Positions 2,479-37,863 of a DNA stretch of 64,000 bases are shown piece after piece. The notes under the pieces were generated by a model. That model had not been told where the DNA came from. It saw only the letters and a list, made by a program, of their open reading frames with translations, and did not search any database. Every line of letters starts with the position of its first letter. The first letter of the stretch is position 1. The DNA comes from Isurus oxyrinchus (lineage: Eukaryota), in contig JANJGN010000052.1 of the NCBI GenBank assembly GCA_026770705.1, positions 2,108,001 to 2,172,000 of the forward strand, given 5' to 3'. The translations under genes were made by a program, and so were the position numbers.

Positions 2479-2760
2479 ATGCACCACAGAATCTCTCAAT
2501 TACTTCTCTTGATATGATTAACGCTTCATCGATCAATATAATTGAGGGGAATTCTGCAGTGATAATCTGCTCTGTCGAGAGCTTCCCAGCTTCTAACCTG
2601 ACGTGGCGACATCTTAATGTCCCAATGAACAGAACAAGTTCCAACAATGAGCTGTGGTTGGTGATTCCTCACGTTACATCCAGGGACACTGGAGACTATC
2701 AGTGTGTGGCAGAGAATGAACATGGAGCAGTGGAGGGGTTCATAACCATCACTGTGGAAC
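2479..2760 (+). CDS. Siglec/MAG-like gene A, C2-set Ig exon (gene 5' end lies upstream of the window)
   Basis: ttttag|AT...GAAC|gtgagt, 282 nt, phase 1-1; APQNLSITSLD...IICSVESFPASNLTW...DTGDYQCVAENEHG has the Ig Cys/Trp/DxGxYxC signature. Confidence 0.9.
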
Positions 2761-2779
2761 GTGAGTGTGGAGATACATT

Positions 2780-3088
2780 TGTTTGTTTGTTGTCTCTGTG
2801 GTCTCCGTGGAGCCATTGGGATCGTGTTGTTTTTAATCCAGTTTTCTTCAATCCTCGCTCAGTCCACGTTATCCACACACCCAATTTTTCCTCTCCCTTT
2901 CTGTTTTTGCTCTCAGTTTCTCCTTCAATGGTTGTCAGGACAAGGCTGTCAGGTCTTCGTTTCCAATCTCCGTACTTGACGAACTTTCTCTCTCTAACTG
3001 CCCTGAACAACCCTTTTAATTGCTGAACTTCTCCTCTTGATCTAAGCCACTCATTGGTCTTTCTGTCCATCCAGCTGATTCTGAGCAT
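2780..3088 (-). mobile_element. RTE-like LINE 3' fragment
   Basis: LRISWMDRKTNEWL...LVLTTIEG. Confidence 0.55.
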
Positions 3089-4140
3089 CTGGCAGCATCT
3101 GTGGAGAGAAAGACAGGGTTAGCGTTTGGAGTGTGTATGACTCCTCTTCAGAGCTAAAGGGAAGTAGACATGTGGTGAAATATATCCTGTCTAAGGGGGG
3201 GGCGATGGGACAGGTGGAGCTGGATAGAAAACCAGCGATAGGTGGAGGCAATGGAGAGATTGTGGAAGATGTCATAAACAAAAGGTCAAAGGGTTGTTAA
3301 CAGTGGTGGTATTGGATAAAGGAGGTGCTAATGGTGACATTAAGCAGAGTGTGATAATGGGCGGACCAGGGTAAGCACTCTGGAAAGAGACAGATGGCCC
3401 TCGTGGGGGTGTGGCAGGGGGAGGGGACGGTGGAGGGAATAAAGATCGAAAATAGACTAAAATCTGCGGATAAAACAATCAAGAAAAATGGAAATGAATT
3501 TCAAATAGTAATAATAAAAATAAGTGGAAAACAGTTAACAAATAAAACAATTAAAATGAATACATAAAAAAAAGTTCAAAAAGCAGTGAAGATCGAGGAG
3601 AGAGTTCATGACCAGGAATTGTTGATCTCAATATTCAGTCCGGAAGGCTGTAAAGTGCCAGGTTGGAAGATGAGGTGTTGTTCCTCCAGTTTGCGTTGGG
3701 CTTCACTGGAACAATGCAGCAGGCCAAGGACGGACATGTGGGTAAGAGAGCAGGGTGGGGTGTTAAAATGGCAAGCGACAGGGAGGTCTGGGTCATGCTT
3801 GTGGACAGACCGAAGGTGTTCATCAGAGCGATCACCCAGTCTGTGTTTGGTGTCTCCAATGTAGAGGAAACCACACTGGGAGCAATGAATGCAGTAGATT
3901 ATATTGAAGGAAGTCTGCATGAAGCGCTACTTCACCTGGAAGGAGTGTTTGGGTCATTGGACAGTGAGGGGGGAGGAAGTAAAGGGGCAGGTGTTGCACC
4001 TTCTGCAAATACATGGGAAGATGTCATCGGAGAGGGTTGAGGTGCTAGGGGTGATGGAGGAGTGGACCAGGGTGTCCTGGAGGGAATGATCCCTGTGGAA
4101 TGCCAACGGGGTGGGGGTGAAGGGAAGATGCTTTTGATGG
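3085..4140 (-). mobile_element. Penelope-like element fragment (GIY-YIG endonuclease)
   Basis: NIIYCIHCSQCGFLYIGDTKHRLGDRSDEH...VACHFN...LEEQHLIF...TLQPSGLN. Confidence 0.85.
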
Positions 4141-4753
4141 TGGTCAGATTTTGTCCGAAGGAGGTGAGAAATGAGGGAGGGAATTCCAGAGGTTAGGATC
4201 CAGGCAGCTGAAGGCACGGCTGCCAATGGTGGAGCGATAGGAATCGGGGGAAGGTCAAGAGGCTGGAATTGGAGGTGCATCGAGATCTCGGAGGGTTGTA
4301 GAGGCTGGAGGAGTTTACAGAGATAAGGAAGGTTGTAGGGGCTGGAGGAGGTTACAGAGATAGAGAGGGTTGAAGCGGCTGGATGAGGTTACAGAGATAG
4401 GGAGGGTTGAAGGTTCTGGAGGAGGTTACAGAGATAGGGAGGGAGTAAGGAGGGATTTGAAACGATGTTAATTTTAAAATTGTGGTATTGTCGGACCGGG
4501 AGCCAGTGTAGCTCAGTGACCAACAGGGAGTGATGTGTGAACGGGACTCGGTGTGAGTTAGGACATGGGGACAGCAGAGTTTGGGATGAGCTGATGTTTA
4601 CGGAGAGTGGAAGATGGGAGGTCGGGCAGGAGAGTGTTGGGATAGTTGAGTGCAGAGGTAACAAAGGCAGGAATGAGTGTTTCAGTGTGAAGATTCTATC
4701 TTACGCTCTAACTTTGCTATGACGTTGTCTCATTGTTGTCCTTCCCTCCTCAG

Positions 4754-5047
4754 ATAAGCCGGAGATTTCCCAGCAGTCGGAGTGCACTCGGAGATCAGAG
4801 GGGGTCACCTGCGTCTGTGTGGCCACCTCCAACCCACCCGGAGACCTCACCTGGCACCTGCCCAGTGCGAACATCAGTGGTAACCAAACACACGGAGGTT
4901 TTGTGTCATGGCAGGTCAGAGATGGGCATCTGGTGACTGGTTTCCTCACCCTGATGAGACCCCAGGATGAGGGGGGAGTGATTGCATCCTGCTCGGTTCA
5001 AAACCCACATGGGGAAGCCATGTTCAAGATGTATCTGTGGGTCAAAG
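4754..5047 (+). CDS. Gene A membrane-proximal Ig exon resembling MAG (Siglec-4) domain 5
   Basis: cctcag|AT...AAAG|gtgaga, 294 nt, phase 1-1; KPEISQQSECTRRSEGVTCVCVATSNPPGDLTWHLPSAN...ASCSVQNPHG shows the C-x8-C-x-C-x3-SNP pattern of MAG D5 and Siglec membrane-proximal domains. Confidence 0.88.
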
Positions 5048-5394
5048 GTGAGAGACTCGCTCAGGATCGATCTCCACTCAGCTGGATTGATCCCTAAACT
5101 CGAGAATTCCCTCCCTCAACCACTCCACCTCTCTCTCTACCTCCTCTAAGATGCTGTTTACAACATAACCCTTTGACCAAGCTTTGAATCACCTGACCTC
5201 ATGTGACAATGGCAACACTTGGTCAAATTGGAGCCAGGCCGTTCAGGGGGTGATGTCAGGAAGCACTTCTTCACACAAAGGGGAGTGGAAATCTGGAACC
5301 CTCTCCCCCAGATAAGCTGCTTCATTGGGTGCAAGACAGAAAGCTTTGACAAAATGTCCTTTCTCAGCAATACTCAGGTTCTCCTCCCAAACGA

Positions 5395-5810
5395 CTAAAT
5401 ATTATATATAAACATTACATAGATTACATCGAGAAACATTATATATAAATGTTACATAGATTACATTGATAAATATTATATATAAATGTTACATCGATTG
5501 CATCGAGAAACATTTTATATAAATGTTACATAGATTACGTTGATAAAAATTATATATAAATGTTACACAGATTAAATGGATAAATATTATATATAAATGT
5601 TACATATGTTACATTGATAAATATTATATATAAATGTTACATGGATTAAATCGAGAAACATTATATATAAATATTACAGAAATTAAATGGATAAAAATTA
5701 TATATAAATGTTACATAGATTATATTGATAAATATTATAAATTTATGCTATAGGGATCACATTGATAAATATTATATATAAATGTTACATGGATTAAATC
5801 GAAATATAAG
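5395..5810. repeat. AT-rich minisatellite, unit about 37 bp
   Basis: ataaatattatatataaatgttacatagattacattg repeats. Confidence 0.85.
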
Positions 5811-6333
5811 ACTTGCGTTGATAAAATACTTAGGAATTCCCAAAACTCTTGATAACCAGTAAAGCAGTTTCGAAGTGAGCTCACTGTTATCATGTTGGAA
5901 ACGCAACAGCTGATTTGTGCACAGCAAGATCCCACAAACAACAGCGTGAAATTGAGGTGATAATTGATTATTTTAGGGAGGGTAGTTGATACATATATAT
6001 AGAAATTACATATATAATATGGGTCACTAATGATCTTAAGGGAGCGAAACCTGTCCATTTTAACAGGTCTGGGTGTATATGTGACTCCAGTCTCAGACAC
6101 CAACATGGTTAACTCTTACCTGCCCTCTGAACTGGTCTTCCAGTTTGGGACAAACCAGTGGTTCAGGAGGAAGACCCCCCACCACCTTCTCAAGGGGAAA
6201 CTAGGGATGGACAATAAATGTCAGCATTGCCCGAGAATGAGTATTTAAACATTGAGTGAGTGTATCGCTTCTCGAGATACATCGGAGCATCATTGTAAAC
6301 CTGTAGTGCAGTAATTAATGGCTGTTTTTACAG

Positions 6334-6430
6334 GTAGAGACTCCAGTAAATGGACAGTAGGATTGTTCACGGCTGGGATCATGTTGAGTGTTTTCCTGGC
6401 TGGAATCTTCATCTTCATCTGTGTGAGAAA
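6334..6430 (+). CDS. Gene A transmembrane exon
   Basis: ttacag|GT...AGAAA|gtaagt, 97 nt, phase 1-2; GRDSSKWTVGLFTAGIMLSVFLAGIFIFICVRK, uncharged hydrophobic helix. Confidence 0.9.
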
Positions 6431-7153
6431 GTAAGTCTGAAGATTTAACTTGATTTTAATCTAAACATTTGCTTAGGACTAATTGGACAGTTTTTACAAA
6501 AGGCCAGCACAGGCACGATGGGCTGAGTGGCTTCCTCCTAAGCTGTGAGATTTTAAATTCTTTCATCGAATGTGGCTGTCATTGGCGTGGACAATACTAA
6601 TTGCCCATTCCCAATTGCCCCTTGAGAAAGAGGTGGTGAGCTGCCTTCTTGACCCACTACAGTCTATGTGGTGTAGGTACACCCACAGTGTTGTTAGAGA
6701 GGGAGTTCCAGGATTTTGACCCAGCGACAGTGAAGGAACGGTGATATATTTCCAAGTCAGGATGGTGAGTGACTTGGAGGGGAACTTCCAGGTGGTGGTG
6801 TTCCCATGTGTCTGCTGCCCTTGTCCTTCTAGATGGTAGAGGTCGTGGGTTTGGAAGGTGCTGTTGAAGGAGCCTTGCTGAGTTGCTGCAGTGCATCTTG
6901 TAGATGGTACACACACTGCTTCCACTGTGTGTTCGTGGTGGAGGGAGTGAATGTTTAATGTGGTGGATGGGGTGTTGATCAATCGAGCTGCTTTGTTGTG
7001 GATGGTGTCAAGCTTCTTGATTCTGTGCTTTGTGCAGAAGTGATTTAAAGAGACAGTCCCAGTCATTGGTGTAAGCTAACAGTGGGCTCTGTGTCTGTGC
7101 TGCACTGACTCTCTGCTATATGATAACCACAGTGTGATATTGTGTTATTGCAG

Positions 7154-7235
7154 GAGAAAGACAGCGATGGAGGAGAGAGTTTCAGGGACCAGTGACATTG
7201 CATTGAGCCCCAGTTCACTCTCTGTGAAGCACCAG
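7154..7235 (+). CDS. Gene A cytoplasmic exon 1, tail copy A
   Basis: ttgcag|G...CAG|gtacag, 82 nt, phase 2-0, fits the TM exon; RKTAMEERVSGTSDIALSPSSLSVKHQ. Confidence 0.8.
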
Positions 7236-7370
7236 GTACAGGAGCTGTTTACACTCACTCCAAAGCTTCAATCTCAGTGTGTAGACAACACGTGTCCCAG
7301 ATTCCCAGCCCAGTTACCCACTGATTTGTACCTGTGGAGTCAGCAATGTTTCAGTATCATGCTGTCTCTC

Positions 7371-8125
7371 TGTTATGACACAGCAACTGGTAAAGACTGT
7401 TGTTTAAAATCCCAGAGGGAAACTTTAAACAACTGTCATAACCTATATTTCCCAGTGGAATGTTTGAGATGCAGCTCTAAATTCAGGAATAAGACCACCA
7501 GTTCTCGAGATGGTTTTATATCAAACTACATGAGCCATTTATTAATTAACACAAGTTAAACATATGCACATGGCTACAAACTAGTATTATCATAACTTTT
7601 TAACAAATTCCCAAACTAATCTCCTCTAAGATAACCCATAGAATTTAAGCAGACACCCAGGCAAAGCATTTTCACCTCACAAATTCCAAATGAGGTTCCT
7701 TTCACTTTGGTTCCTTTGCAGACAGGTGTAGGCTTACAGCTGCTTTGATGTTACAAGCCTCTGCTCTGCACACACAAAACTGCTCAAGTTATACCCAGCT
7801 CTTCTCTTTGAATGTAAATTCTAATTGTATCATCAGGACCTTTGATCTCCATCTCTTTTCACAATAAATCCTCTGTCATAGTATCAATTTTATCAATAAA
7901 ATAAATGTTGATTGGTTTAAGATTTCACTCTCAGGCGTTGAATGCTCTGTTTAAAAATACAAATTTTTATGCCTCAGTTTACATCTCAAAACTACTATAC
8001 ATCAAATACCCAGACTGGCTGGCTTTAATCCAATTAAAACACACAGAGACACACCCACAGACTAAACCCCGATGTGAATAAAAATAATTTCCAATAACAT
8101 GATATTTATTAATCGCATCATGACA
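7371..8125 (-). mobile_element. Solo-LTR-like insertion (duplicated at 10357-11290)
   Basis: TGTTATGA...TCATGACA inverted termini; reverse-complement similarity to 12322-13273 and 18255-19429. Confidence 0.55.
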
Positions 8126-8701
8126 GTCTCTCTCTCTATCCCAACCTCCCTTTCTTTCTCTCTCTCTCTCTTTCTCTCTCTCTCATCCTCTCTCTGATTA
8201 CAAGGTGCATGTTAATGAGCTTCACACCAGACACTTGAGTGCAGAATCCAACTGTCACTCACCAGAACCATTACCGAGGGAGTGCAAGACTGACAGAGGG
8301 TCAGTACTGAGGGAGTGCTGCACTGTCAGAGGGTCAGTACTGAGGGAGAGCTGCACTGTCAGAGGGTCAGTACTGAGGGAGTGCTGCACTGTCGGAGGGT
8401 CAGTACTGAGGGCGAGCTGCACTGTCGGAGTGTCAGTACTGAGGGAGCGCTGCACTGTCGGAGGGTCAGTAATGAGGGAGCGCTGCACTGTCGGAGGGTC
8501 AGTACTGAGGGAGTGCTGCACTGTCGGAGGGTCAGTCCTGAGGGAGCGTTGCACTGCCATAGGTGGTATCTTTCATATGACATGAGAGAGAGGGTTAAAC
8601 CAACTGAGACACGACTGACATTAACAAGGCTGCACAATAATTTAACCCTATCAGTGCCAGTAAATGATGTGAGGATAACTTCTGTTTCGATTTCTCTGTA
8701 G

Positions 8702-8950
8702 GGTAAACAGAACGTGCTGATTACTGAGCCCCAGAACACAAAGAGAGACGCAACTGGCGAGGGGGAGACCCCAGCTCCCTGGGGTCTCTCTGAAGATGCA
8801 ATGGGAGGCGATGTTGGACATGGGAACCCTGACAAACCTGAAGATTTTCTCTACGCCAATCCCCAAGTCTTGAGGATGTCCAGTGGTGATGGGTCTGTCC
8901 ACAGGGAAGTGGAGACGGAATACGCACAGATCAGGTTCGAGCATAACTGA
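8702..8950 (+). CDS. Gene A terminal cytoplasmic exon, tail copy A (degenerate ITIM FLYANP + ITSM TEYAQI)
   Basis: ctctgtag|GGT phase 0; GKQNVLITEPQ...EDFLYANPQVLR...ETEYAQIRFEHN*; AATAAA at 9517-9522. Confidence 0.85.
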   Translation, partial: GKQNVLITEPQNTKRDATGEGETPAPWGLSEDAMGGDVGHGNPDKPEDFLYANPQVLRMSSGDGSVHREVETEYAQIRFEHN

Positions 8951-10139
8951 ATGAGAAATGGGGAGAGTGAGTGAGGAGGTATGGGGGTGGGGGTAGTGAT
9001 TGAGATTCCTGGGAACAGGAAACACCCACTGGGGGAGAGGGAGAGAGAGGGAGGAAGGGATGGAATTGGGCTGCGGTTGGTGTGGTTTGGAATGAAATGC
9101 TTCTCCAGAGAGGACTGGATGCTGAGCCATTGGGGATAGAGATTCACTGTCTTTCTCTCTCTCTCTCTCTCTCTCCCTCTCTCTCTCGCTCTCTCCCTCT
9201 CTCTCTCTCTCTCTCTCCCTGTCTCTGTCTTTCTTTCTGTGTCTGTCTCTCATTCCCTATCTCCAGCTCCTCCTTTAAGATGCCCGTTAATAACTGACTT
9301 TGTTGACTCAGCTGTTGGTCTCCTGTCCCTAATATCTCCTCATGTGCCTCAGAGTCAGGTGAAGATGTCACTAACAATCCCCAGATGAGCCTTAGGACAT
9401 TTTGCTACATTGAAGGTGCTATATAAATGCAAGTGGTTGTAGTAACTCTGATCTGCTTCGATTAACAATAGAACCACAAAGGCTCCTTCGACAGGGAGTG
9501 TGTGCAGCAGGGTCACAATAAATACATTGAGCTGTGAGATTTTTAATTCTTTCATCGAATGTGTCTGTCACTGGTGATGTCAGCATTAATGCCCATCCCT
9601 AATTGCCCTTGAGAAGGTGGTGGTGAGCTGCCTTCTTGACCCGCTGCAGTCCATGTGGTGCAGCTACACCCAAAGTGCTGTTAGAGAGGGAGTTCCAGGA
9701 TTTTGACCCAGCGACAGTGAAGGAACGGTGATATATTTCCAAGTCAGGATGGTGAGTGACTTGGAGGGGAACTTCCAGGTGGTGGTGTTCCCATGTGTCT
9801 GCTGCCCTTGTCCTTCTAGATGGTAGAGTTCGTGGGTTTGGAAGGTGCTGTTGAAGGAGCCTTGCTGAGTTGCTGCAGTGCATCTTGTAGATGGTACACA
9901 CACTGCTGCCACTGTGTGTTCATGGTGGAGGGAGTGAATGTTTAATGTGGGGGATGGGGTGTAGATCAATCGGGCTGCTTTGTCCTGGATGGTGTCAAGA
10001 TTCTAGATTCTGTGCTTTGTGCAGAAGTGATTTAAAGAGACAGTCCAGTCATTGGTGTAAGGTTACAGTGTGCTCTATGTCTGTGCTGCACTGACTCTCT
10101 GCTATATGATAACCACAGTGTCATATTGTGTTATTGCAG

Positions 10140-10221
10140 GAGAAAGACAGCGATGGAGGAGAGAGTTTCAGGGACCAGAGACATTGCATTGACCCCCAGT
10201 TCACTCTGTGTGAAGCACCAG
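10140..10221 (+). CDS. Gene A cytoplasmic exon 1, tail copy B
   Basis: Near-identical copy of 7154-7235 with intact cag/gtacag sites; RKTAMEERVSGTRDIALTPSSLCVKHQ. Confidence 0.75.
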
Positions 10222-11781
10222 GTACAGGAGCTGTTTACACTCACTCCAAAGCTTCAATCTCAGTGTGTAGACAACACATGTCCCAGATTCCCAGCCCAGT
10301 TACCCACTGATTTGTATCTGTGGAGTCAGCAATGGTTCAGTATCATGCTGTCTCTCTGTTATGACACAGAAACTGGTAAAGGCTGTTGTTTAAAATCCCA
10401 GAGGGAAACTTTAAACAACTGTCATAACCTATATTTCCCAGTGGAATGTTTGAGATGCAGCTCTAAATTCAGGAATAAGACCACCAGTTCTTGAGATGGT
10501 TTTATATCAAACTACTTGAGACATATATTAATTTACACAAGTTAAACATATGCACATGGCTACAAACTAGTATCATCATAAATTTTTAACAAATTCTCAA
10601 ACTAATCTCCTCTAAGACAACCCATTATCTTTAAGCAGACACCCAGGCAAAGCATTTTCACCTCACAAATTCCAAATGAGGTTCCTTTCACTTTGGTTCC
10701 TTTGCAGACAGGTGTAGGCTTACAGCTGCTTTGATGTTACAAGCCTCTGTTCTGCACACACAAAACTGCTCAAGTTATACCCAGCTCTTGAGTGTAAGGA
10801 AGACGGAGATTGATGGGCTCTTGATTGGTCAGGGGATCAAAGGTTAGGAGAGAAGGTGGGAGAATGGGGTTTGTGAAACATATCAGCCATGTATGAATGG
10901 TGGAGCAGACTCGATGGACCGAATGGTCTAATTTCTCCTCCTATATCTGATGGTCTTATGGCTTCTGTTTGAAGGTAAATTCGCAATGTATCATCAGGAC
11001 CTTTGAACTCCATCTCTTCCAATAATAAATCCCCTTTCATCGTATCAATTTTATTAGTAATATAAACGTTGATTGGTTTAAGATTTCACTCTCAGGCATT
11101 TAATGTTTTATTTAAAAATGCAAATTACCACTTTACCTCTTTGTTTACATCTGAAAACTACTATACATCAAAGCACCCAGACTGGCTGGCTTTAATCCAA
11201 TTAAAATACACACAGACACACACACAGACTAAACCTCTGTTTAAAAAGACAGTTTGCATTTATAATACAAACATTAATAGATTAATAACACTCTGTCTCT
11301 GTCCCTCCTCTCTCCCTCTCTCTCATCCTCTCTCTGATTACAAGGTTCATGTTATTGAGCCTCACACCAGGCACCTGTGTGCAGATTCCAAGCCATCACT
11401 CACCAGAGCCATTACCGAGGGAGTGCTGCACTGTTGGAGGGTCAGTACTGAGGGAGTGCTGCACTGTTGGAGGGTCAGTACTGAGGGAGTGCTGCACTGA
11501 CAGAGGGTCAGTACTGAGGGAGCGCTGTATTGTCGGAGGGTCAGCACTGAGGGAGTGCTGCACTGTCAGAGGGTCAGTATTGAGGGAGTGCTGCACTGTT
11601 GGAGTGTGATAGAGATTAAATTATAAAGAGAGAGAGAAAGCGAGAGAGACAGAGAAAGAGAGTGAAAAAAAGGGTTAAACCCACTGAGATACGACTGACA
11701 CTAATGAGGCTGCACAATAATTTAACCCTATCAGTACCAGTAATTGATGTGAGGATATCTTCTGTTTCCATTTCTCTGTAG

Positions 11782-12030
11782 GGTAAACAGAACGTGCTGA
11801 TTACTGAGCCCCGGAACACAACCAGAGACACAACTAGTGAGGGGGAGACCCCAGCTCCCCGGGATCTCTCTGAAGGTCCAGTGGGAGGCGATGTTGGACA
11901 TGGGAACCCCGACAATCCCGCCAAGCTTCTCTACGCCAACATCAACTTTTCAAAGCTGCCCGGCGGTGACAGGACTGTGCACAGGAGCGAGGACACGGAA
12001 TACGCACAGATCAGGTTCCAGAAAAACTGA
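11782..12030 (+). CDS. Gene A terminal cytoplasmic exon, tail copy B (ITIM LLYANI + ITSM TEYAQI)
   Basis: ctctgtag|GGT phase 0; ...PAKLLYANINFSKL...DTEYAQIRFQKN*, the classic Siglec ITIM plus ITSM-like pair. Confidence 0.85.
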   Translation, partial: GKQNVLITEPRNTTRDTTSEGETPAPRDLSEGPVGGDVGHGNPDNPAKLLYANINFSKLPGGDRTVHRSEDTEYAQIRFQKN

Positions 12031-12223
12031 GTGTGAAACAGGGAGCGGGGCTGTGGGGTGTGTGCAGCCAACATGGCCAAATAGTAATGAACAGAAATAT
12101 GATGTTGCTCAACTTTTTTTTATTGGTTCTGAGTGAGCTTTCTGAATGCTGCACCTTTTTCCATGCTGTAAAAGATTGTGAGAAGCTTATGAATTATGTA
12201 TAATTTAACATCTGTTAATACAA

Positions 12224-25109: not shown

Positions 25110-25155
25110 ATGGGAGAGGTCGGTCTGATACTGATCTTCATCAGCTTGCTGCAAG
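25110..25155 (+). CDS. Siglec-like gene B signal peptide exon
   Basis: MGEVGLILIFISLLQ-G|gtacaa, phase 1; acceptor tttag just upstream. Confidence 0.85.
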
Positions 25156-25975
25156 GTACAAATTCATTACTGATCGGAACTCAGGGAATTGGATTCTTTC
25201 CTGGAGTGAGGAAGTGAACATTTAATTTTAGAGAAAAGGGTTAGTGATCACACAGAGAGTGAGTGAATAGCGAGTCAGAGAATTTAGCAAAAGCAAAAGT
25301 CTCATACGGACTCGAAACACCAACTCTGTTTCTCTCTCCACAGATGCTGTCAGACCGGCTGAGTTTTTCCAGCATTTTCTGTTTGTGCATCAGAGAGCTT
25401 GTTTCAATAGGAATGACAGTGCATTTATATAGCACCTTTAATGCAGTAAAACATCCTTATTGCTTCACAGGATTCCCCCACAAGGGGTAACATCCCCTCA
25501 GCATCCACCCTGTCAAACCCCCCACCACCTCAGAATCTTATATGTTTCAATAAGATCACCTCTCATTCTTCTAAACTCCAATGGATACAGGGCCCAACCT
25601 GCTCAACATTTCCTCATAAGACAAACCCCCTTCATCCCAGGAATCAGCCCAGTGATCCTCCTCTGAGCTGCCTCCAATGCAGAGTCTATCCCTCCCTAAG
25701 TAAGGAGACCAGAACTCTACACACTGCTCCTGATACAATCTCACCAACGCCCTGTACAGTTGTAGCAAGACTTCCCTCCTTTTATACTCCATCCCTTTGC
25801 AATAAAGGCCAACATTCCACTTGCCTTCCTCATTCCGTGCTGTTCCTGAATGCTGACTTTCTGTGATTCATGTACAAGGACACCCAGATCCCTCTGTACC
25901 GCATTCTGCTGCCTCTCTCCATTGAAGTAATATTCTGCTTTTTGATGTCCTGTCTCTTCCCTTGTTGCCTTTCAG

Positions 25976-26332
25976 GAGTGACGTCAGAGGGATGGTCTAT
26001 GAAGGCGCTGTCTCGGAGGGCCATCAGCAGCTCTTGTGTGGTTATTCCGTGTAGCTTTGACTTTCCTTCCCACTCTTACACAGCACTGCACGGAGCTTGG
26101 TATAAATATTGGTATAGATGGAAATATACCATCACATACACCAAAGATCCCAACTATGCGATGGCCACATTCGTGGGACGTGCTAAAATAATCGGCGACT
26201 TGGAAGGGAAGAATTGTTCGGTGAGGATTGACAGTCTCAGAGCTGAAGATAGTGATGTGTATTACTTTTATGTGGATGTGGAGGGCTACACAGATCACAC
26301 TTTTACACAACCAGTCCAACTCCAGGTTCTTG
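25976..26332 (+). CDS. Gene B Siglec-type V-set Ig exon (essential Arg replaced by Tyr)
   Basis: ttcag|GA...CTTG|gtaagt, 357 nt; SCVVIPCSF...GAWY...FVGRAKIIGDLEGKNCSVRI...EDSDVYYFYV; Siglec B- and E-strand Cys present, no F-strand Cys. Confidence 0.92.
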
Positions 26333-27439
26333 GTAAGTCCCAGTTCCTTTCACACTCAGTCTATCAGCACAAGGGGGTCATGTTCTCATCTCAGAGCCAG
26401 GCAGTCATGGGTTGAATTCCTGCTCCAGGAGATGTCAGAACAAAGTCCAGTATGTGATCTGGTGCAGTACTGAGGGAGTTCCACACTGTCAGAGGGTCAG
26501 TACTGAGGGAGTGCTGCACTGTCGGAGGGTCAGTACTGAGCGAGTGCCACACTGTCAGAGCATCAGTACTGCGGGAGTGCTGCACTGTCGGACGGTCAGT
26601 ACTGAGGGAGTGCTACACTGTCGGAGGGTGAGTACTGAGGGAGTGCTGCACTGTCACCGGGTCAGTACTGATGGAGTGCTGTACTGTCGGAGGGTCAGTA
26701 CAGGGGGAGTTCTGCACTGTCGGAGGGTGAGTACCGAGGGGGTGCTGCACCTTTGGGGGGTCAGTATTGAGGGAGTGCTGCACCGTTGGGGGGTCTTTGC
26801 CGAGTGAGTGCTGCTCTGTCTGAGAATTATCACTTGTATCAAAATGTTTTTAACTTTACTGTTGTTCCCACTTCAGCTGCAACTGCTCCACATCCCCATG
26901 TGTTAACTGGAGCATGTCAGCCTGGAGTTACGTGGAATTGCAGAGCAGAATCTGCTCTCACACATTGAAGCTGGCAATCGCTAAGTGTCCCTCAGTGATG
27001 ATGTTTTCTGATGGAATGAAACTTGGCAAAGCCGTGGGTAGTGATAAGGAGAGATTGGGCATGAGAGGGGCAGGATCAGTGTGAGGTGGGCAGACACATG
27101 GCTGATGCAGTTCAGCGCAGTGTCGTGTGAAGTGACGCACTTTGTCAGGATGAATACAGACAGATATTGGACAGTAATGATTTGGACAGGTGTAGGTGAG
27201 CAGAGACCTGGGCGTCTCTCTGCACTCATTCTGAAAGATTAAAGGACAAATTGTTGAGGTGATGAAGAAAGAAAATGTCTTCCTTGTGTTAACAGACTGA
27301 GGAACCCAGTTAAAAGCAAAGAGATCATGCGGGAACTTTATAAATCACTGGTTAGAACTCAGCTGGAATATTGTTCAGAACGCTGGGCCTCCACACTTCA
27401 GGAAAGATGTAAGAGCTTCAGAAAGGGTGTCCAAGAGGA

Positions 27440-27860
27440 CAAAACTGTAAAAACTGGGACATAAGAGTCCTGCTCCAAACTGGTCTTGTATAGCTTAACA
27501 TATAACAGTGGTAAAACTGGGAAATAAGAGTCCTGCTCCAAACTGGTCTTGTATAGCTTAATATAAAACACCAGTAAAACTGGGAAATAAGAGTACTGGT
27601 CCAAACTGGTCTTGTATAGCTTAATATAGAACACCAGTAAAACTGGGAAATAAGAGTACTGGTCCAAACTGGTCTTGTATAGCTTAATATAGAACACCAG
27701 TTAAACTGGGAAATAAGAGTACTGGTCCAAACTGGTCTTGCATAGCTTAATATAGAACACCAGTTAAACTGGGAAATAAGAGTACTGGTCCAAACTGGTC
27801 TTGTATAGAATAATATAGAACACCAGTAAAACTGCGAGATAAGAGTACTGATCTGAACTG
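27440..27860. repeat. 63-bp minisatellite
   Basis: taaaactgggaaataagagtactggtccaaactggtcttgtatagcttaatatagaacaccag; inverted short copy at about 61905-62005. Confidence 0.9.
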
Positions 27861-28419
27861 ATTTTTTGCTTCTGGGTGGAGAGGAGATTGAGCAGAATGG
27901 GTCCAGGGATGAGGGATTTTAGCTACAAGGTTGGGTTGGAGGAGCTGGGGTTGTTCTCCTTGGAACAAAGGAGATTGAGGGGGGATCTGATCGAGGTGTA
28001 CAAGATGATGATGGGTTTAGATAAGGTAGACGAAGAGAAGATGTTGCCATTAGCTGATGGTACAAGGACCGGGGGACACAGATTGAAGGTTGTGGGTGGG
28101 GGGCGATGTGAGGAGGAACTTTTTTACACAGCGAGTGGTAATGAGCTGGAACTCGCTGCCTACGAGGATGGTGGAAGTGGAGACGATGAACAATTTCAAA
28201 AGGAAATTGGACGGACAATTGGAAATAAACTCACAGGGATACGAGGACAGAGCGGGGGGAATGGGACTGATTGGATTGCTCTACAGAGAGACAGCATGAA
28301 CTGGATGGGCCAATGGCCTCCTTCTGTGTTCTGAGTGTCTGTGACCCTATTGAAAAATCAGAGGACAAATACAAATTGTTTTCTGCTTGTCAGTTAACAT
28401 CTGGAACTTTCTATTACAG

Positions 28420-28707
28420 ATGCTCCAGATAAGCCAGTTATTGTGCTCCTGAAGGATTTACAGGAGGGGACTCCTGCACATATCATCTGTAAATGCCTCT
28501 ACACCTGCCCTGATAACCACCCCAATCTAACCTGGAGTGAATTGCTGACTTCATCGGTCAGCAACATTACAGAGAACGGTGGTGAGGTTTCCGCTCTACT
28601 GACCTTTAACCCTTCGTTCAAGCATCATGGACGAACTCTCCGCTGTACGTGCGACTACCCTCAAACCAGCCATCGAGTGGTCAGCTCCGTTACTCTGAGT
28701 GTAAAGT
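28420..28707 (+). CDS. Gene B Ig domain 2 (Siglec D2-type C2)
   Basis: ttacag|AT...AAGT|gtaagt, 288 nt; DKPVI..LQEGTPAHIICKCLYTCPDNHPNLTW...ALLTFNPSFKHHGRTLRCTCDYP. Confidence 0.92.
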
Positions 28708-29215
28708 GTAAGTATTGATTAGAACATCATGCTTGTGATGGAGGGGGAGTCGGTCTCCTATTAAATCAGGCATTGGAGAAGGCGCAAGTTGGATTGACAA
28801 GGATGATTCCAGAACTGAGATGTTATAGCTATCAGGAAAGACTGAACAAGCTGGGATTCTTTTCTCTAGAAAAGAGAAGGCTGAGGGGGTGACCTCATCG
28901 AGGTCCTTAAAATGGTGAAAGGGTTTCGATAGGGTAGATGTGGAGAAGATGTCTCCACTTGTCGGAGTGACGAAGAGTTAGGGGCCATCAATATAAGATC
29001 ATCACTAATAAAATGGTGCACACTGCTAACAATGTGTGTTCATGGTGGAGGGAGTGAATGTTGAAGATGGTGGGTGGGATGCCAATCAATCGGGCTGCTT
29101 TGTCCTGGATGGTGTCGAGCTTCTTGAGTGTTGTTGGAGCCGCACTCATCCCGGCAACTGGAGAGAATTCCATCACACTCAGTGTTTAATGTGTTGATAA
29201 TTTTGTATTTGAAAG

Positions 29216-29473
29216 ATTCTCCTCACAACACGTCTGTCAGGCTGACACTGGAAAAAGGAAAGGTGATTTCTCTAAGTTGTTCCAGTGACGGGAATCCAGC
29301 AGTCCACAATTTCACCTGGTTTAAGATCTCCCAAGGAAAGATGACGAATCTCGCGCTCGCTGGTCAAACTATTACAGTTCCTTATGGATTCGATGAGGAA
29401 ATCTCCTACTACTGTGAAGCAACAAGTATCCTGGGCAGTTCCCAGTCTCTGCCCATTAGAATTCCCACTGAAT
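29216..29473 (+). CDS. Gene B Ig domain 3 (C2)
   Basis: gaaag|AT...GAAT|gtgagt, 258 nt; SPHNTSV...ISLSCSSDGNPAVHNFTWFK...SYYCEATSILG, CD22/sialoadhesin-like C2. Confidence 0.9.
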
Positions 29474-30829
29474 GTGAGTAATTTCAATCCTGACTTTTAA
29501 ACAATTCCACATCTTGTCCAAACTCCGAGGTGAACCAAATCTCCCCTTGGGTGTTGCTGAAAACATGCTGTCGAAGGTTTCAATCCTCGTCAGGACAGAG
29601 TCACGAGAAAACCCAATCTCAAAGGGAACAGCCATTTCTGATGCGGGGGAAGAGGGCGTGCTGATTGGCTGGCAAGTCGACATTTCTCCACAGTTTGTTC
29701 ACAATTCTCAGTGATGGTCACCATGAAACTACCAGATTGTTGTAAAAACCCATCTGGGCCAGTAATCTCCTTTAGGGAGGGAATTCTGCCATCCTTACCC
29801 GGTCTGGCCTACATGTGACTCCTGACCCACAGCCATGTGGGGGAATCTTAACTGCCCCTCTGAATGGGCCGGGCATGCCACTCAGTTGTATTCGAGCGGG
29901 CGGCTCACCACCGCCTTCTCAAGGGGCAACTAGGGATGGGCAATAAACGCTGGCCCTGCCAGTGATGCCCACATTACTGAATGAATTCCAATAGAAGAGG
30001 AATCCTCCCATTCTAGAGATTGGCGATCCATACACTGGGCTGACATTCCCAGTCATTCAATAATCAGCCTGTTCCCCCATTCAATCAGATCACGGCTGGT
30101 CTGTATATTAACCCCATCCACCCAGCTCGGTTCCTTAAACCTTAAACACCCCCCGACCCAACAGAAATCTCCCAATGTCAGTTTTGAAATTTACAATTGA
30201 CCCCTCCCAGCCTCGACAGCTTTTTCTGGGGGAGAGAGTTCCAGATTTCCACCCCCCCTTTGTGTGAAGAATTGCTTCCTGACATCACCCCCTGAACGGC
30301 CTGGCTCCAATTTTAAGATTCTGCCCCCTTGTTCTGGACCCCCCCTCACCTCACCCCCACCCCCACCCCCCACCCCCACCCTCACCCCCACCCCCACCCC
30401 CACCCCCACCCCCACCCTCACCCCCACCCCCTCACCTCACCCCCACCACCAGGGGAAATAGTTTCTCTCTATCGACCCCATCAAATCCTTTAATCATCTT
30501 AAACCCCTCGATTAGATCACCCCTTAATCTTCAAGACTCGAGGGAACACAAGCCTGGTCTGTGCAACCTGTCCTCAGAATTTAACCCTTTCAGCCCCGGG
30601 ATCGTTCTGGTGACTCTGGGCTGCAGCCCCTCGGAGGGCAATATACCCTCCCTGAGGGGCGGGACCCACAACTGAAGCCACTAACTGCAGGTGGGCTCTG
30701 AGCAGAGATTTATAACCTGACGCATCTCTCCGAGCCTCTTTGTATTCCCACTTCCTTGGGGTAAAGGCCCCTATTCCATCGGAATTCTCTATTGCTACGG
30801 TGTGACTGACACGGGATATATTAATGGGT

Positions 30830-33115
30830 GGTTTTCCTCTGAACTGTATCTCAGAATAAATGATCCCCTGGAAAAAAATGACCATAACCTGGTACAATTC
30901 AGCATTCCCTCTGAGACTGAGAAACTTGGGTCGGAAACAACTGTGCTGGACTTAAATAAGTGTAATTACAAAGAAATAAGGACAGGGTTGTCTGGAGTGG
31001 ACTGGGAAAGGGGTTTAGCAGAAAAGATGCTGGATGAACAATGGCAGATCTTTAAGAAAATATCTCATGACTCACAACAAAGATATATCCCGGTGAGGAA
31101 GAAGGATTGTAGGAAGAGAATAAACCAACCTGGGTTACCCAAAGAAGTTCAGGCGTGTGTCAAATTGAAAGAGAAACCATGCAATATGGTTAGTGGTAAG
31201 CCAGAGGATTGGGAACGTTTTAAAAACCAACAGAAGATGACCAAAAAATAAATAAAGAGGCAGAAAACTATGTAAACTAGCAAATTATAAAAAAAGGACA
31301 GTAAAAGCTTCTTTAAATATATAAAAAGGGAGAGAGAGACCAAAGTGAACATAGGCCCCTGAGAGAACTAGGCTGGGGAAATAATAATGAGGAGCCAGGA
31401 AATGACAGAGGAGTTGAATAAATACTTTGCATCAGTCTTCACGGTAGAACACACTAATAGCATTCCAAAAATACTAAATAATCAAGGGGCAAAAGGGGGG
31501 TGGGGGGAGGAAATAAATACAGTAACTATCACTAGAGAATAATACTAGGGAAAGTCATGGGTCTCAAGGCTGATAGGTCCCCTGGACCTGATAGGTTGCA
31601 TCTTAGGATATTAAAGGAAGTAGATGCAGAGATAGTGGATGCACTGGTTTTAATCTTCCAAGAATCCTTAGATTCTGGGAAACTCCCAGAGGATTGGAAA
31701 TCTGCCAAAGTAACACCCATATTCAAAAAGGGAGGGAGACAACAAACAGGAAACTATAGGCCAGTTAGCTTAACATCTGTCATTGGGAACATGTTAGAGT
31801 CCATTATAAAGGATGTAATAGCAGACTATTTAGAAATGCATAATTTAATCACACACAGGCTTCATGAAGGGGAAATCATGCATGACAAATTTATTAGAAT
31901 TCCTTGAGGAGATAACAAACAGGATAGATAAAGGGGAACCAGTAGATGTAATATATTTGGATTTCCAAAAGTTGTTCAGTAAATTACCACATATAAGGCT
32001 ACTTAATAAGATAAGAGCCCATGGTGTTGGGGGCAGTATATTAGCATGGATAGAGGATCGACTAACTAAGAGAAGACAGAGATTTGAGATAAGGGGGGCA
32101 TTTTCAGGATGTCAACCTGTGGAGTGCCACAGGGATCAGTGCTGGGGCCACAATTATTTACAATATATATTAATGACTTGGATGAGGGAAATTAATGTAC
32201 TTTCGCCAAGTTTGCGGATGACACAAAAATAGATGGGAAGGCAAGTGGTGAGGGTGACACGAAGAGTCTACAGAGGGACATAGACAGGTTCAGTGAGTGG
32301 GCATCAACTTGGCAGATGGAATATAATGTGGGAAAATGTGAGCTGCTGCACTGTGGCAGGATGTATAGAGGAGCTGAATATTATTTCAATGGAGAAAGAC
32401 ATTGGAAAGCTGAAGCATAGAGGAATTTGGGGGTCATCAGAAAGATAACATACAAGTTCAACAGTTAATAGGGAAGACAGGTGGAATGTTGGCCTTTATT
32501 TCAAAGGGAATGGAGTATAAAAATAGGGAAGTCTTGCTAAAACTTTACAAGGCACTAGTTAGACCACACCTAGAATACTGTGAGCAGTTTTGGTTCCCTT
32601 ATCTAAGGAAAGATGTACTGGCATTGGAGGCAGTCCAGAGAAGGTTCACTAGGTTGATCCCAGTAATGAGGTATTTTCATATGAGGAGAGGTTGAGTAGG
32701 ATGGGCCTGTACTCATTGGAGTTTAGGAGAATGAGAGCTGACCTTATTGAAACATATAAGATTCTTAGGGTGCTTGACAGGGTAGATGCTGAGAGGTTGT
32801 TTCCCCTTGTGGGAGAGTCTAGGACCAGAGGGCATAATCTCAGAGTAAGGGGTCACCCATTTAAGACAGAGATAGGAGTTTCTTCTCTCAGAGGGTAGTG
32901 AATGTGTGGAATTCTTTACTACAGAGAGCTGCAGAGGCTGGGTCATTAATTATATTCAAGGCTGAGAGACACAGTTTTTTAATCAGTCAGGGAATCAAAG
33001 GCTATGGGGAAGAGGCAGGAAAGTGGAGTTGAGGATTGTCAGATCAGCCATGGTGTCATTGAATGGCGGAGCAGAGTTGATTGGCCGAATGGCCTCCTTC
33101 TGCTCTGACGTCTTG
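30830..33115 (+). mobile_element. Decayed CR1 LINE ORF2 and 3' UTR
   Basis: SPGPDRLHLRILKE...GNYRPVSLTSV...VDVIYLDFQK...LYKALVRPHLEYC, with multiple frameshifts. Confidence 0.92.
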
Positions 33116-33134
33116 TGGTCTTATGGTCTTATCA

Positions 33135-34020
33135 CCCTCCAACAGTGCAGATCTCCCTAATTACTGATCCTCCGACAGTGCAGCACTCCCTCAGTACTGA
33201 CCCTCCGACAGTGCAGCACTCCCTCAGTACTGACCCTGCAACAGTGCAGCACTCTTCCAGTACTGACCCTCCGACAATGCAGCACTTCCTCAGTAATGAC
33301 CCTCCGACAGAGCAGCACTCCCTCAGTACTGAACATCTGACAGTGCAGCAATCTTCCAGTCCTGACCCTCCGACAGTGCAGCATTCTTCCAGTACTGACC
33401 CTCCGACAGTGCAGCATTCCCTCAGTACTGACCCTCCGACAGTGCATCACTCCCTCAGTACTGACCATCCAACAGTGCAGCACTCCTTCAGTACTGACCA
33501 TCTGACAGTGCAGCACTCCCTCAGTACTGACCATCCAACAGTGCTGCACTCCCTCAGTACTGACCCTCTGACAGTGCAGTACTCTCTCAGTACTGACCCT
33601 CTGACAGTGCAGCACTCCCTCAGTACTGACCCTCTGACAATGCAGCACTCTCTCAGTACTGATCCTCCGACATTGCAGCACTCCCTCAGTACTGACCATC
33701 CAACAGTGCAGCACTCCATCAGTACTGAACCTCCAACAGTGCAGCACTCCCTCAGTACTGACCATCCAACAGTGCAGCACTCCCTCAGTACTGACCATCC
33801 AACAGTGCAGCACTCCCTCAGTACTGACCCTCCGACAGTGCCGCACTCCCTCAGTACTGACCATCCAACTGTGCAGCACTCCCTCAGTACTCATTCTCCG
33901 ACAGTGAAGTACTCGCTCAATACTGACTATGCGGCAGTGCAGCTTTCACAGTACCCACCCTCCAACAGTGCAGCACTCCCTCAGTACTGACCCTCCGACA
34001 GTACAGCACTCCCTCAGTAC
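33135..34020. repeat. 33-bp satellite array
   Basis: Same unit. Confidence 0.95.
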
Positions 34021-34154
34021 TGAGCTGTAGTGACTGCCTGAATTAAGTGCTTTGTGGTGAAGGAACCTACATTGATATCAGACCTTTCACATTCTCAGTG
34101 TCTCTCAAAGCGTTTCACAGACAATGTAAGTAACTGATCTTTATTTGTTTTCAG

Positions 34155-34436
34155 ACACACCACAGAATCTCTCAATTAATTCTCTTGATATGATTAACGT
34201 TTCATCGATCAATATAATTGAGGGGTATTCTGCAGTGATAATCTGCTCAGTCGAGAGCTTCCCAACTTCTAACCTGACGTGGCGACATCTTAATGTCCCA
34301 ATGAACAGAACAAGTTCCAACAATGATCTGTGGTTGGTGATTCCTCACGTTACATCCAGGGACACTGGAGACTATCAGTGTGTGGCAGAGAATGAACATG
34401 GAGCAGTGGAGGGGTTCATAACCATCACTGTGGAAC
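34155..34436 (+). CDS. Gene B Ig domain 4 (C2)
   Basis: tttcag|AC...GAAC|gtgagt, 282 nt; near-identical to 2479-2760. Confidence 0.9.
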
Positions 34437-34915
34437 GTGAGTTACACAGACTTCAACAACTCTCTCAGATTTGAACACATATACATAAATGCACTCCCAC
34501 ACGCACTCACTGCACTGGAGTCTTGGTGTCAGCTCCAATTCTGGATGGAACGAAGGTAAACTCCAGATCAACAAGACCCTGAATTGGATGACCAAACTCC
34601 TGAACAGTGAATTGTAGATTTACCCCTCAGTGCTCCATCAATCAAATACAATTCATTGCCTGTAAAGGCTTGGCGAAATCCTGAGGATGTGAATGAAAGT
34701 TTCTTTCATTCTAGATTGATAGCACCTCAACTGGTGGGGGAATGCAACTGCAGTGTGACAGTTTACATAGGCAGTGTCCATTATAAATGTGACAGAGGAA
34801 CTTATGCTGAGGAAGGTGCCTGGAATTGTATTCAGACATCAGATACGGAGAGATGATACATGGAGTCTTGATGTGCATTGTGCTTGCTCACTCTAAAATC
34901 TTTATATGTTTTTAG

Positions 34916-35197
34916 ATGCTCCACAGAACCTCTCAATTACTTCTCTTGATATGATTAACGCTTCATCGATCAATATAATTGAGGGGAATTCTAGAGTGAT
35001 AATCTGCTCTGTCGAGAGCTTCCCAGCTTCTAACCTGACGTGGCGACATCTTAATGTCCCAATGAACAGAACAAGTTCCAACAATGAGCTGTGGTTGGTG
35101 ATTCCTCACGTTACATCCAGGGACACTGGAGACTATCAGTGTGTGGCAGAGAATGAACATGGAGCAGTGGAGGGATTCATAACCATCACTGTGGAAC
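34916..35197 (+). CDS. Gene B Ig domain 5 (C2, tandem duplicate of domain 4)
   Basis: ttttag|AT...GAAC|gtgagt, 282 nt; only a handful of substitutions versus 2479-2760. Confidence 0.9.
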
Positions 35198-35224
35198 GTG
35201 AGTTACACAGAATTGAACATTCTC

Positions 35225-36270
35225 TTGTTATTAGCTCATGGGATGTGGGCATTGTTGACAAGGCCAGAAATTATTGCCCATCTGTAACTGCCCCTTGAGA
35301 AGGTGGTGGTGAGCTGCCTTCTTTAACCACTGCAGTCCATGTGGTGTAGGCACACCAACAGTGCTGTTAGGGAGGGAGTTCCAGGATTTTGACCCAGCGA
35401 CGGTGAAGGAACGGCCGATATAGTTCCAAGTCCCAGGGCAGACCACCACCTCATGTTGATTTCCAAGTCACACACCTCACTGACTTGGAACTCTCTTGGT
35501 GGAAGAGGTTAAGGGTTTGGAAGGTGCAGTCGAAGAAGCTTTGGTGAGTTGCTGCAGTGCATCTTGTAGATGGTGCATACACTGCTGCCATTGTGTGCCA
35601 GTGGTGGAGGGTATGAATGTTTATGCTGGTGGATGGGCTGTTGATCAAACAAGCTGCTCCTGGATGGTGTCGAGCTTCTTGAGTGTTGTTGGAGCTGCAC
35701 TCATCCAGCCAAGTGGAGATTATTCCATCACAATCCTGACTTGTGCCTTGTCGATGGTGGACAGGCTTTGGAGAGTCAGGAGGTGAGTTACTCACCGCAG
35801 AGTTCCCAGCCTCTTACCCGCTCTTGTAACCACATTATTTCCTGTTGCCGGGTTGTTGCCAGGGCCAATAGCCTTTGCTGTATCCAGTATCATCAGCTGA
35901 TTCCTGATGTCACGTGGAGTCAATCGAATTGTCTGAAAGCTGACATCTGTGATGCTGGGACCCTCTGGAGGAGGCCGAGATGGAGCATCCACTCAGCACT
36001 TCTGGCTGAACATGGTTGCCAATGCTTCAGCCTTGTCGTTTGCACTGATGTGCTGAGCTCCCCCATCATTAAGGATGGGGATATTTGTGGAACATCCTCC
36101 TCCTGTTAGATCTTTAATTGCCCATCACCATTCATGACTGGATGTGGCAGGACTGCAGAGCTTAGATCTGACCCGTTGGTTGTGGGATCGCTTTGCTCTG
36201 TCTATAGCATGTTGTTTCCGCTGTTTGGTGTGTATGTAGTCCTGTGTGTCACCTCAGCAGCTTGGCACCC
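35225..36270 (-). mobile_element. LINE fragments (same family as 12224-14320)
   Basis: Reverse complement of the 3' region seen at 13760-14300; further copies at 6560-7020 and 9550-10000. Confidence 0.75.
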
Positions 36271-36463
36271 CTGTTATATGTGAATCCTCCTTATAGAAAC
36301 CTGCATGTACATGGATATTATCAATAAATATTACATAGATAAATGTTATTTGTATAGACCTTTCATGCATAGACAATATCACTTCACAAGTTCAGAATTA
36401 CTACATGTACATAGGGAACCATTCTCAAACTATACCGGAGTCATTCATTGGCTGATTTTACAG

Positions 36464-36560
36464 GGCGAGATTCCAATGAATGGAAAGCAGGATTGCTTGG
36501 AGCTGGAATCTGTTTGAGTGTTGGACTGAGTGGATTCTTCATCTTCAAGTGTGTGAGAAA
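36464..36560 (+). CDS. Gene B transmembrane exon
   Basis: ttacag|GG...AGAAA|gtaagt, 97 nt, paralogous to 6334-6430; RDSNEWKAGLLGAGICLSVGLSGFFIFKCVRK. Confidence 0.88.
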
Positions 36561-37124
36561 GTAAGTGTGAAGGTTTAATTGGTTGTTTTCGAAAATGTTT
36601 TCTTCAACCTTCTCTCCTTATAGAAAGAACTTGCATTTCTATAGCACCTTTTACAATCCAAAACCCTTCACAGCCCCTGAAGAGTTTTGATGTTCACCTA
36701 CTGTTTCACATCTCATCCAACACTCACTGTTTCACAACTCAGTCCTGTAACTGGCAGTGTTGACCCGGACCATAAAATACCTTGTGACCTCCTGAGTTTG
36801 TGAAAGGTGCGATATAAATGAAAACCTTTCTTTTGTTAGTGAATACAATCCCTTTCCTTTTTCCATGTTTCATTCACTCTCTCTTATCTCCACTAATGCA
36901 CGCCTTCTCATTCTCTCTCATTCACTCTCTCTCCAATCTCCACTAATGCTCTCCTTCTCATTCTCTCTCTCGTCCTCTTACACAATGTTCAGTCTCTCAC
37001 ATTTTTAAGGAGTGCTGAGCTACATCTGCTCCTTCAGAAGATCCACCTCAACACCTGGATTGAGCAGTGAATTGAAACTCGCTCACCGACTGCTCAGCTT
37101 TACACAGGAATCACGTCACAGAGT

Positions 37125-37520
37125 CAGGACACAAAGGGTTAACAGTTTGCTTACAACACAACACTAAGGCCCAACGTTTCAATGAAAGGGTTTTCACAAT
37201 TGTTCCCCAATTCCTGATTTGACTCACAGAGAGACATCCACCCTTTCTCATTAAATACACAGAGGGAGCAGCACAGGAAGAGGTCATTCAGCCCAAGCAG
37301 AGCGTGTGGGCAGTTCCTCCCCAGGCGAGCAGTCGGACAGGTACTGGGTAAGTAACGGAACGATTGGAATTCACTTCCACCACCAACACCGTCCTTTGTT
37401 GATGTTGTGACTTTATAAAGACAGATTCCAATGATTGATGCCTTTGAAAGATTTCTACTGATTATTGAGATCTGGGTGTGAGGCTCAAGTCTGTTGTACA
37501 GAACATCTTTCTGGTTAAAT
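37125..37520 (+). promoter_or_regulatory. Promoter/first-exon module copy 1 (inside the gene B intron)
   Basis: Near-identical to 43594-43970; TGACTCA, CAGGAAG, donor gtaagt at 37348. Confidence 0.55.
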
Positions 37521-37863
37521 TATGCAGACAGGTTACACACAGTCTACGATTATATTCACTCGGGTCTAGAAGATTAAGGAGGGATCTAATTGAGAGTTTC
37601 AAACTGATTAAACACTCGATAGGGTCGATAGAGAGAAGCTATTCCCTCGGGTGGGGGTGGGTGGTGGGGGTCGGGTGGAGTCCAGAACAAGGGGGCTGGA
37701 ACTTCAGATTGGAGCCAGGCCGTTCAGGGGTGATGTCAGGAAGCACTTCTTCACACAAAGGGGAGTGGAAATCTGGAACTCTCTCCCCAATAATCAAACC
37801 CAACACCGAATACACATCATGTTGATTGTCATTCTGTCCATTTCCATCTCTATTTCGGAAGAG

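Follow-up and report, generated by a model that had tools for sequence, protein, structure and literature searches.

Tail cassettes in the window

We analysed a stretch of 64,000 nucleotides of the genome of the shark Isurus oxyrinchus (contig JANJGN010000052.1, positions 2,108,001 to 2,172,000), hereafter called the window, which harbours a Siglec-like receptor gene with a duplicated cytoplasmic tail. The features of the window described here all lie on the + strand. The sole transmembrane (TM) exon of the gene (6334..6430, phase 2 at its end) is followed by two intact tail cassettes of two exons each, A and B. Cassette A (6541..9529), as delimited by BLAST, alignments and a tree, consists of an intron, exon c1A (82 nucleotides, 7154..7235, phase 2 in and phase 0 out), a second intron, last exon A (8702..8950, with its own stop codon at 8948-8950) and a 3' untranslated region (UTR) with an AATAAA signal at 9517..9522. 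Cassette B comprises exon c1B, also of 82 nucleotides (10140..10221), and last exon B (11782..12030), the nearest AATAAA being at 13098. All four tail exons have AG/GT ends and are in frame with the TM exon. The last exons encode 82 residues each and agree at 55 of 83 codon positions. A tblastn search revealed neither a TM nor an Ig exon within 6431-12030, a segment free of N letters.

An earlier note on this DNA, made from its letters alone, had described a repeat of 6541-8950 at 9530-12030 without TM or Ig exon in between, with splice sites and frame kept in both copies, and with proximal halves nearly identical and terminal exons more divergent. Our analyses bear out this description, except that unit A extends to 9529. 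In a self-BLAST of the window, 6541-7803 and 9530-10789 are 95.2% identical, and 7801-8965 and 10962-12045 are 77% identical. By global alignment, the identity between A and B is 94.1% in the intron before c1, 96.3% in exon c1 (7154-7235 versus 10140-10221) and 96.6% in the 565 nucleotides after c1, i.e. 94-97% in the proximal half, compared with 84.8% in the remaining intron and 83.5% in the last exons (8702-8950 versus 11782-12030).

The tyrosine motifs of the two tails and the AATAAA at 9517 are as first reported. Tail B harbours LLYANI, which we take to be an ITIM (inhibitory motif of the immunoreceptor tyrosine-based type), and TEYAQI, while tail A harbours FLYANP and TEYAQI. We assume that tails of this kind bind SHP proteins and that YANP can be read as a YxxP (Crk/Nck-type) site. 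The motif of tail A had been called a broken ITIM; the ITIM pattern is indeed absent, but YANP still fits the Grb2-type pattern YxN. TEYAQI and YAN match the ITSM (switch motif of the immunoreceptor tyrosine-based type) TxYxxV/I and the YxN pattern, respectively, as these are given in the available parts of two papers (PMC11599192, PMC2832619).

Cassette arrays in the genome

A 21-nucleotide tail word occurs 199 times in the genome without mismatch, and its reversed control never does. We collected the surroundings of the matches on contig C52 among the first 100 listed, of six further C52 tails and of five arrays chosen elsewhere, which gave 112 cassettes in 62 clusters, 57 of them on C52. 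Proportions given below apply to this non-random sample and should not be extrapolated to the whole genome; some copies on different contigs may be haplotype duplicates of one another. Thirty-seven of the 62 clusters contain 2-5 cassettes, with A always internal and the last position occupied by B or by a third type, C, which has a YANP motif like A but ends in FKRN. The layouts include TM-B (22 clusters), TM-A-B (13), TM-A-C (5), TM-A-A-C (4), TM-A-A-A-B (3) and TM-A-A-A-A-B (1), in addition to A-C units without a TM exon (11) and B without a TM exon in view (3, two of which have little upstream DNA). The duplicated tail layout is thus a family-wide feature, with one to five cassettes per gene. 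A next-cassette test found another cassette 2.2-4.5 kb downstream of all 50 A exons, and downstream of none of the 42 B or 20 C exons, the full 4 kb being seen for 8 B and 19 C. Reading frames are intact in 49/50 A, 42/42 B (including those of single-tail genes) and 19/20 C copies.

The assembly comprises 5558 contigs, with near-identical copies on different contigs, and one might suspect that A and B are alleles set in tandem by haplotype mis-assembly. This is very unlikely, close to negligible, because the same junction recurs throughout the family (behind 50/50 A exons, 32 of the 57 C52 clusters being multi-cassette), because two paralogues on the same contig match 8338-12100 at 99.4-99.5% identity, and because the junction between A and the next cassette is spanned by contigs (9257-9615 and 9446-9615) from two public runs, which stem from different organisms and different studies. 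Two other shark species also share the layout (see below).

C52 genes that differ in their tails and V domains have TM exons of 98-100% identity, which points to strong homogenization of the family. A Gly-to-Glu variant in the TM helix (LLAEIFIF) was found in 10 genes, all multi-cassette, including all 8 genes with at least 3 cassettes, and in 0/22 TM-B genes. Its carriers include L102, L103, L107, L119, L138 and arrays on contigs C71, C323, C724 and C1184, which hold four- and five-cassette genes, and it is also present in the white-shark loci P0003 and P0020.

The 11 A-C units without TM exon or c1 in front are located on C52 (e.g. L097+L151, L111+L154 and L114+L155). Their homology begins in a SINE-like (short interspersed nuclear element) tandem repeat, corresponding to window position 8269, and the frames are intact in 10/11 A and 10/11 C. 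Four of these units follow a TM-B gene of the same orientation at a distance of approximately 18 kb, and these could represent distal last exons.

An in-frame splice donor inside exon A

Last exon A contains an internal phase-2 splice donor, CAG|GTTCGA (8932..8940, exon end 8934), predicted to define a 1205-nucleotide intron (8935-10139) that ends at the acceptor of c1B. This acceptor, at 10140, is likewise of phase 2 and compatible with both the TM donor and the internal donor, and the frame of the joined A+B tail is open. The chained tail would comprise 215 residues after the TM exon, with four tyrosine motifs (YANP, TEYAQI, LLYANI and TEYAQI), compared with 110 residues for a single-cassette tail; every extra cassette adds 105 residues. 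The donor has 6/9 consensus matches, the best score among the GT sites of exon A. A GT with G at +5 is present in 50/50 internal (A) cassettes and in 0/62 last (B or C) cassettes. The equivalent site in last exon B of the window is CAG|GTTCCA; B cassettes in general have GTTCCA (one GTTCAA) and C cassettes AG|ATTCAA, the GT of C-type last exons being lost through a synonymous AGG/AGA difference. Exon A also has the hallmark of a composite terminal exon, namely a 5' splice site (8934|8935) inside an exon with an AATAAA (9517) behind it; this signal is AATAAA in 38 of the 50 A copies and AGTAAA in 12.

These data suggest that the internal donor probably joins A to B, producing the chained four-motif tail besides shorter ones. 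Exon A would act as a composite exon, with three outcomes: splicing at the donor would yield A+B, read-through to the stop and AATAAA of A would yield A alone (110 residues) as a minor, IgM-like exit, and skipping of A would yield B alone. At the recombination point, the polyadenylation signal of A may have been cut off from the sequence that originally followed it, and this would make splicing more likely. Receptors would then differ, from gene to gene and between splice forms, in how many docking sites of the SHP-1/SHP-2 and Grb2 types they carry and in what mix.

Several points weigh against chaining. The donor is non-consensus, with 6 of 9 matches versus 5 for the site of B, and the computed duplex energies with U1 (-6.3 versus -5.6) do not separate the two sites. 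The A copies form one clade (100/100), so that the 50-to-0 split of the donor amounts to a single event, which fits the model without proving it, and the flanking bases vary as little as the donor does. Exon A retains its stop codon, its FEHN ending and its polyadenylation hexamer. The 8934-10140 joint is absent among the 15 of 153 joints listed from RNA contigs. The ratio of non-synonymous to synonymous polymorphism (pN/pS) in A is about 1.2 overall and 0.52 in the motif half, so that amino-acid constraint is not evident. Finally, the NCBI gene models described next are predictions, and those with one isoform could be ab initio.

Gene models in other sharks

A search with tail A retrieved 15 proteins, all from Carcharodon carcharias or Cetorhinus maximus, and the gene is therefore of a lamniform type. 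Their NCBI models chain two modules at the same donor in 11/11 multi-cassette loci fetched, 8 from the white shark and 3 from the basking shark; the junction reads TEYAQIR followed by RKT or KKT, with 105 residues per module. The chained white-shark models include XP_041037215-221, XP_041037234 and XP_041037239. Six white-shark loci are ordered A then B, with 89-94% and 83-89% identity, respectively, to the distal halves of the window. At most two cassettes were seen in the white shark, versus up to five in the I. oxyrinchus genome. Relatives from Stegostoma, Hemiscyllium, Scyliorhinus and Mustelus have one B-type tail (LYANINF, LYASINY, LYASINF), and B can therefore be regarded as the ancestral type.

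One white-shark A+B locus has six isoforms, four of which (isoforms X1, X2, X3 and X6) use the internal donor. A is chained to B in X1, X2 and X6, while X3 joins this donor to last exon B in another frame and stops after SVNRTC. The other two are B-only skips, in which the TM exon is joined to c1B (X4) or c1A to last exon B (X5); both junctions had been proposed in the earlier note. According to the available part of a description of the NCBI pipeline, in an older 2014 version, variants of multi-variant genes needed full alignment support (PMC5737279).

That note had envisaged alternative last exons that switch signalling, the TM exon being joined to A or to B to give an ITSM-only or an ITIM+ITSM tail. 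The cassettes are intact and motif isoforms are plausible, but the internal donor, by which both cassettes can be joined in one tail, had been overlooked. We regard mutually exclusive use without chaining as possible but clearly the less probable scheme. It would fit the intact acceptors, frames and own stops of both cassettes, the AATAAA kept in 38/50 A copies, the annotated B endings and the X4 and X5 isoforms, and it has a parallel in human CD33, which uses last exons 7a and 7b (PMC5190023, available part). However, the 75 proteins fetched all lack the FEHN ending of A, and the A stop is not the end of any model, whereas the 11 multi-cassette loci of the two other sharks are all modelled through the internal donor. 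Moreover, three or four near-identical A cassettes would add little as alternatives but would add motifs if chained. Lastly, X4 and X5 could stem from mis-mapped reads of single-tail paralogues, which presumably could not generate a junction in the middle of a last exon.

RNA and translation evidence

Contigs of four RNA runs indicate that transcripts of the family are spliced (6430-7154, and c1 to last exon) and cover the UTR of B. The 6430-7154 junction, one of those proposed earlier, is thus present in RNA contigs of the family, in which A and B are not told apart. The joints 7235-8703 and 7233-11780 have sides of 18-28 nucleotides, and they cannot separate the cassettes because these sides are shared by A, B and single-tail paralogues. 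RNA depth, available as contigs only, ranks neither exon A against B nor exon against intron and was not used. Contigs with A-side variants on exon A (position 8845) are present in RNA runs X1 and X2.

Among 47 distinct copies, exon A has 74 distinct substitutions and no indels in 249 nucleotides, and the UTR of A in the same copies has 134 substitutions and 11 indels in 447 nucleotides. Approximately six indels would be expected in exon A (P about 0.002, a value understated since G runs hold some of the UTR indels and two indel pairs may each reflect a single event). This depletion relative to its own UTR argues that exon A is translated. Within types, pN/pS is 1.20 for A, 0.72 for B and 0.90 for C, values that are blurred by conversion and uninformative. 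The conservation of the +5 G was considered as a separate sign of selection and rejected, the neighbouring bases being equally invariant. No candidate was found among short proteins spanning the chained junction, and a query with the chained white-shark protein revealed no processed retrocopy among the 150 of 978 candidates scored.

These results also bear on the view that B alone is used while A, for the most part silent or left out by splicing, multiplies passively through unequal crossing-over and gene conversion in a gene cluster with rapid turnover. The strong homogenization of the family, with its TM exons 98-100% identical, the mixed proximal halves of A, B and C (92-96%) and the 11 TM-less A-C units, which are mostly intact and indicate that intactness alone can reflect recency, would accord with such passive spread. 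We nevertheless hold it unlikely in light of the indel depletion of exon A, the A-side variants on exon A in two RNA runs and the same cassette order kept in the white shark.

Origin of the cassettes

In the distal halves, identity is 75% between A and B, 76.5% between B and C and 88% between A and C, while it is 92-96% in the proximal halves, whether copies of one type or of different types are compared. A tree built from 85 distinct distal halves together with the UTR start, rooted at midpoint and with bootstrap not fully settled, places A and B each on one side of a 100/100 branch, with A among C. The UTR of A aligns with that of C up to 7 nucleotides past the AATAAA, where the intron of the next cassette starts (9529/9530, within a recombination junction at 9523..9545 common to all A copies). 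Cassette A is therefore likely a whole C-type gene end, 3' UTR included, that was set before another cassette once, as indicated by the UTR alignment and the tree. It follows that the A+B pair appears to be a recombinant of two older tail lineages and not a fresh local copy. The best alignment of the YANI/YANP difference is obtained with a pair of frameshifts (+1/-1) that spans about six codons. A plausible history would start from ancestral B, from which type C would have arisen by this local frameshift turning YANI into YANP; one C-type gene end, the future A, would then have come before another cassette, and unequal crossing-over would have built arrays of one to five cassettes.

The earlier note had alternatively proposed that B is the orphan of a deleted paralogue. 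Its premise is sound in part, as two older lineages have apparently been joined by recombination: with distal halves 75% identical to those of A, B came from another paralogue, and A holds the first polyadenylation signal in the path, at which the gene might end. That B is an unused remnant is nonetheless improbable, given that it is intact in 42/42 copies, that 13 TM-bearing genes on a single contig, as well as white-shark loci, share the A+B order, and that annotated white-shark isoforms reach B.

Siglec-type features of the receptor gene

The ectodomain of the gene is encoded by an Ig C-type exon, IgC_a (2479..2760), and a membrane-proximal Ig exon, IgC_b (4754..5047), both on the + strand of the window, and further upstream by a leader at about -16070, two V-set exons (-7127..-6753 and -3466..-3099) and a C2-set exon (-2240..-1943), negative positions lying before the window. 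Each of these upstream exons is open in one frame. Both V exons score above the cut-off for Pfam V-set and Ig_CD22. The best matches of V2 in PDB are Siglec-5, -8, -10 and -7, CD33 and MAG (E 3e-14 to 2e-11), and its YFFRIE aligns with YFFRVE of Siglec-5, the F-strand arginine, which we take to be the essential Siglec arginine, being present. The outer domain, V1 (L148:2873-3247), has YLFSLE and lacks it, while V2 keeps it. The alignment and the exon map also reveal that V has the cysteine pattern of Siglecs (CxxxPC ... CSL), with C2-type domains after it. Tail B has a proximal ITIM (LLYANI) and a distal ITSM motif (TEYAQI) as in Siglecs, while tail A alone has no ITIM. The gene thus appears to be of the CD33-related-like Siglec type in those features that can be checked by sequence.

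Comparison with known systems

In immune receptor families, diversity is usually external, and the tail is one of two kinds, inhibitory or activating. This family of about 200 or more tail exons varies inside as well, by copy number, and the DNA points to a route from a former last exon to a repeatable internal exon. Although more tentatively than for the single gene, we can envisage a lamniform germline 'accordion', i.e. a stackable last exon with an in-frame donor, by which tyrosine motifs would range from 2 to 10 per receptor across the family, with the length of the tail and its combination of motifs being adjusted in each multi-cassette gene through a regulated competition between splicing and polyadenylation. 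If so, YANP+ITSM modules would be capped by an ITIM+ITSM module or by a second non-ITIM module. Carrying 1 to 5 modules behind a common TM exon, these genes offer a natural series relating the number and order of ITIM, ITSM and YxN motifs to inhibitory strength. Shark annotations merge or split such genes and call for caution.

Human CD33-related Siglecs (Siglec-5, -7, -8, -10 and CD33) similarly combine V-set and C-type Ig domains, a TM segment and an ITIM plus ITSM-like tail such as shark tail B, in a large cluster with an activating-type neighbour. They differ from the shark genes, which have 1-5 tandem tail cassettes per TM exon and a YANP module without ITIM, and the likeness is one of sequence and implies no orthology. 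Two V domains, as in the shark gene, are also present in Siglec-12. In the available part of PMC5190023, the tail of human CD33 is likewise changed by 3' exon choice, but E7a is an unrelated short exon whose early stop removes 54 residues, whereas in the shark gene whole modules are duplicated and can be chained. The composite terminal exon of IgM also has an internal donor in competition with a downstream polyadenylation signal (PMC5928244, available part); there it determines membrane anchoring, whereas exon A would set the number of cytoplasmic modules. CEACAM1-like paired receptors, an expanding family of Ig receptors, likewise acquired foreign tail exons downstream of a common TM exon by recombination; according to the part of PMC2832619 that is available, the old exons were replaced, whereas the shark genes keep old cassettes next to new ones in expanding tandem arrays. 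The C. carcharias and C. maximus models, of the same family and with the same chained junction, bear automatic names (MAG-like, Siglec-like or uncharacterized). We found no published description of shark tail arrays in the literature, although supplements of genome papers may mention the expansion, and the available part of PMC13262535 does not treat the tail arrays of this family.

Neighbouring genes and ectodomain variation

A second Siglec-like gene lies at 25110-39890 (+) of the window. Its V type is different, its TM exon (36465-36561) is diverged, and its tail is of another kind, with DLYANC and VYGNL at 39771-39890. Further downstream, a last exon at 47708-47846 (+) encodes a TM helix with an Arg residue and a very short tail, as in an activating-type partner gene, with a V exon near 45010-45367 and a partial C exon near 45892-46042.

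In single-tail genes on C52 (e.g. L108, L112, L124 and L135), IgC_a is present in tandem up to six times before the TM exon, so that the ectodomain of these genes forms an accordion too. One contig of RNA run X2 joins IgC_a directly to the TM exon (window 2760-6334), which may reflect skipping of IgC_b or paralogues devoid of it.

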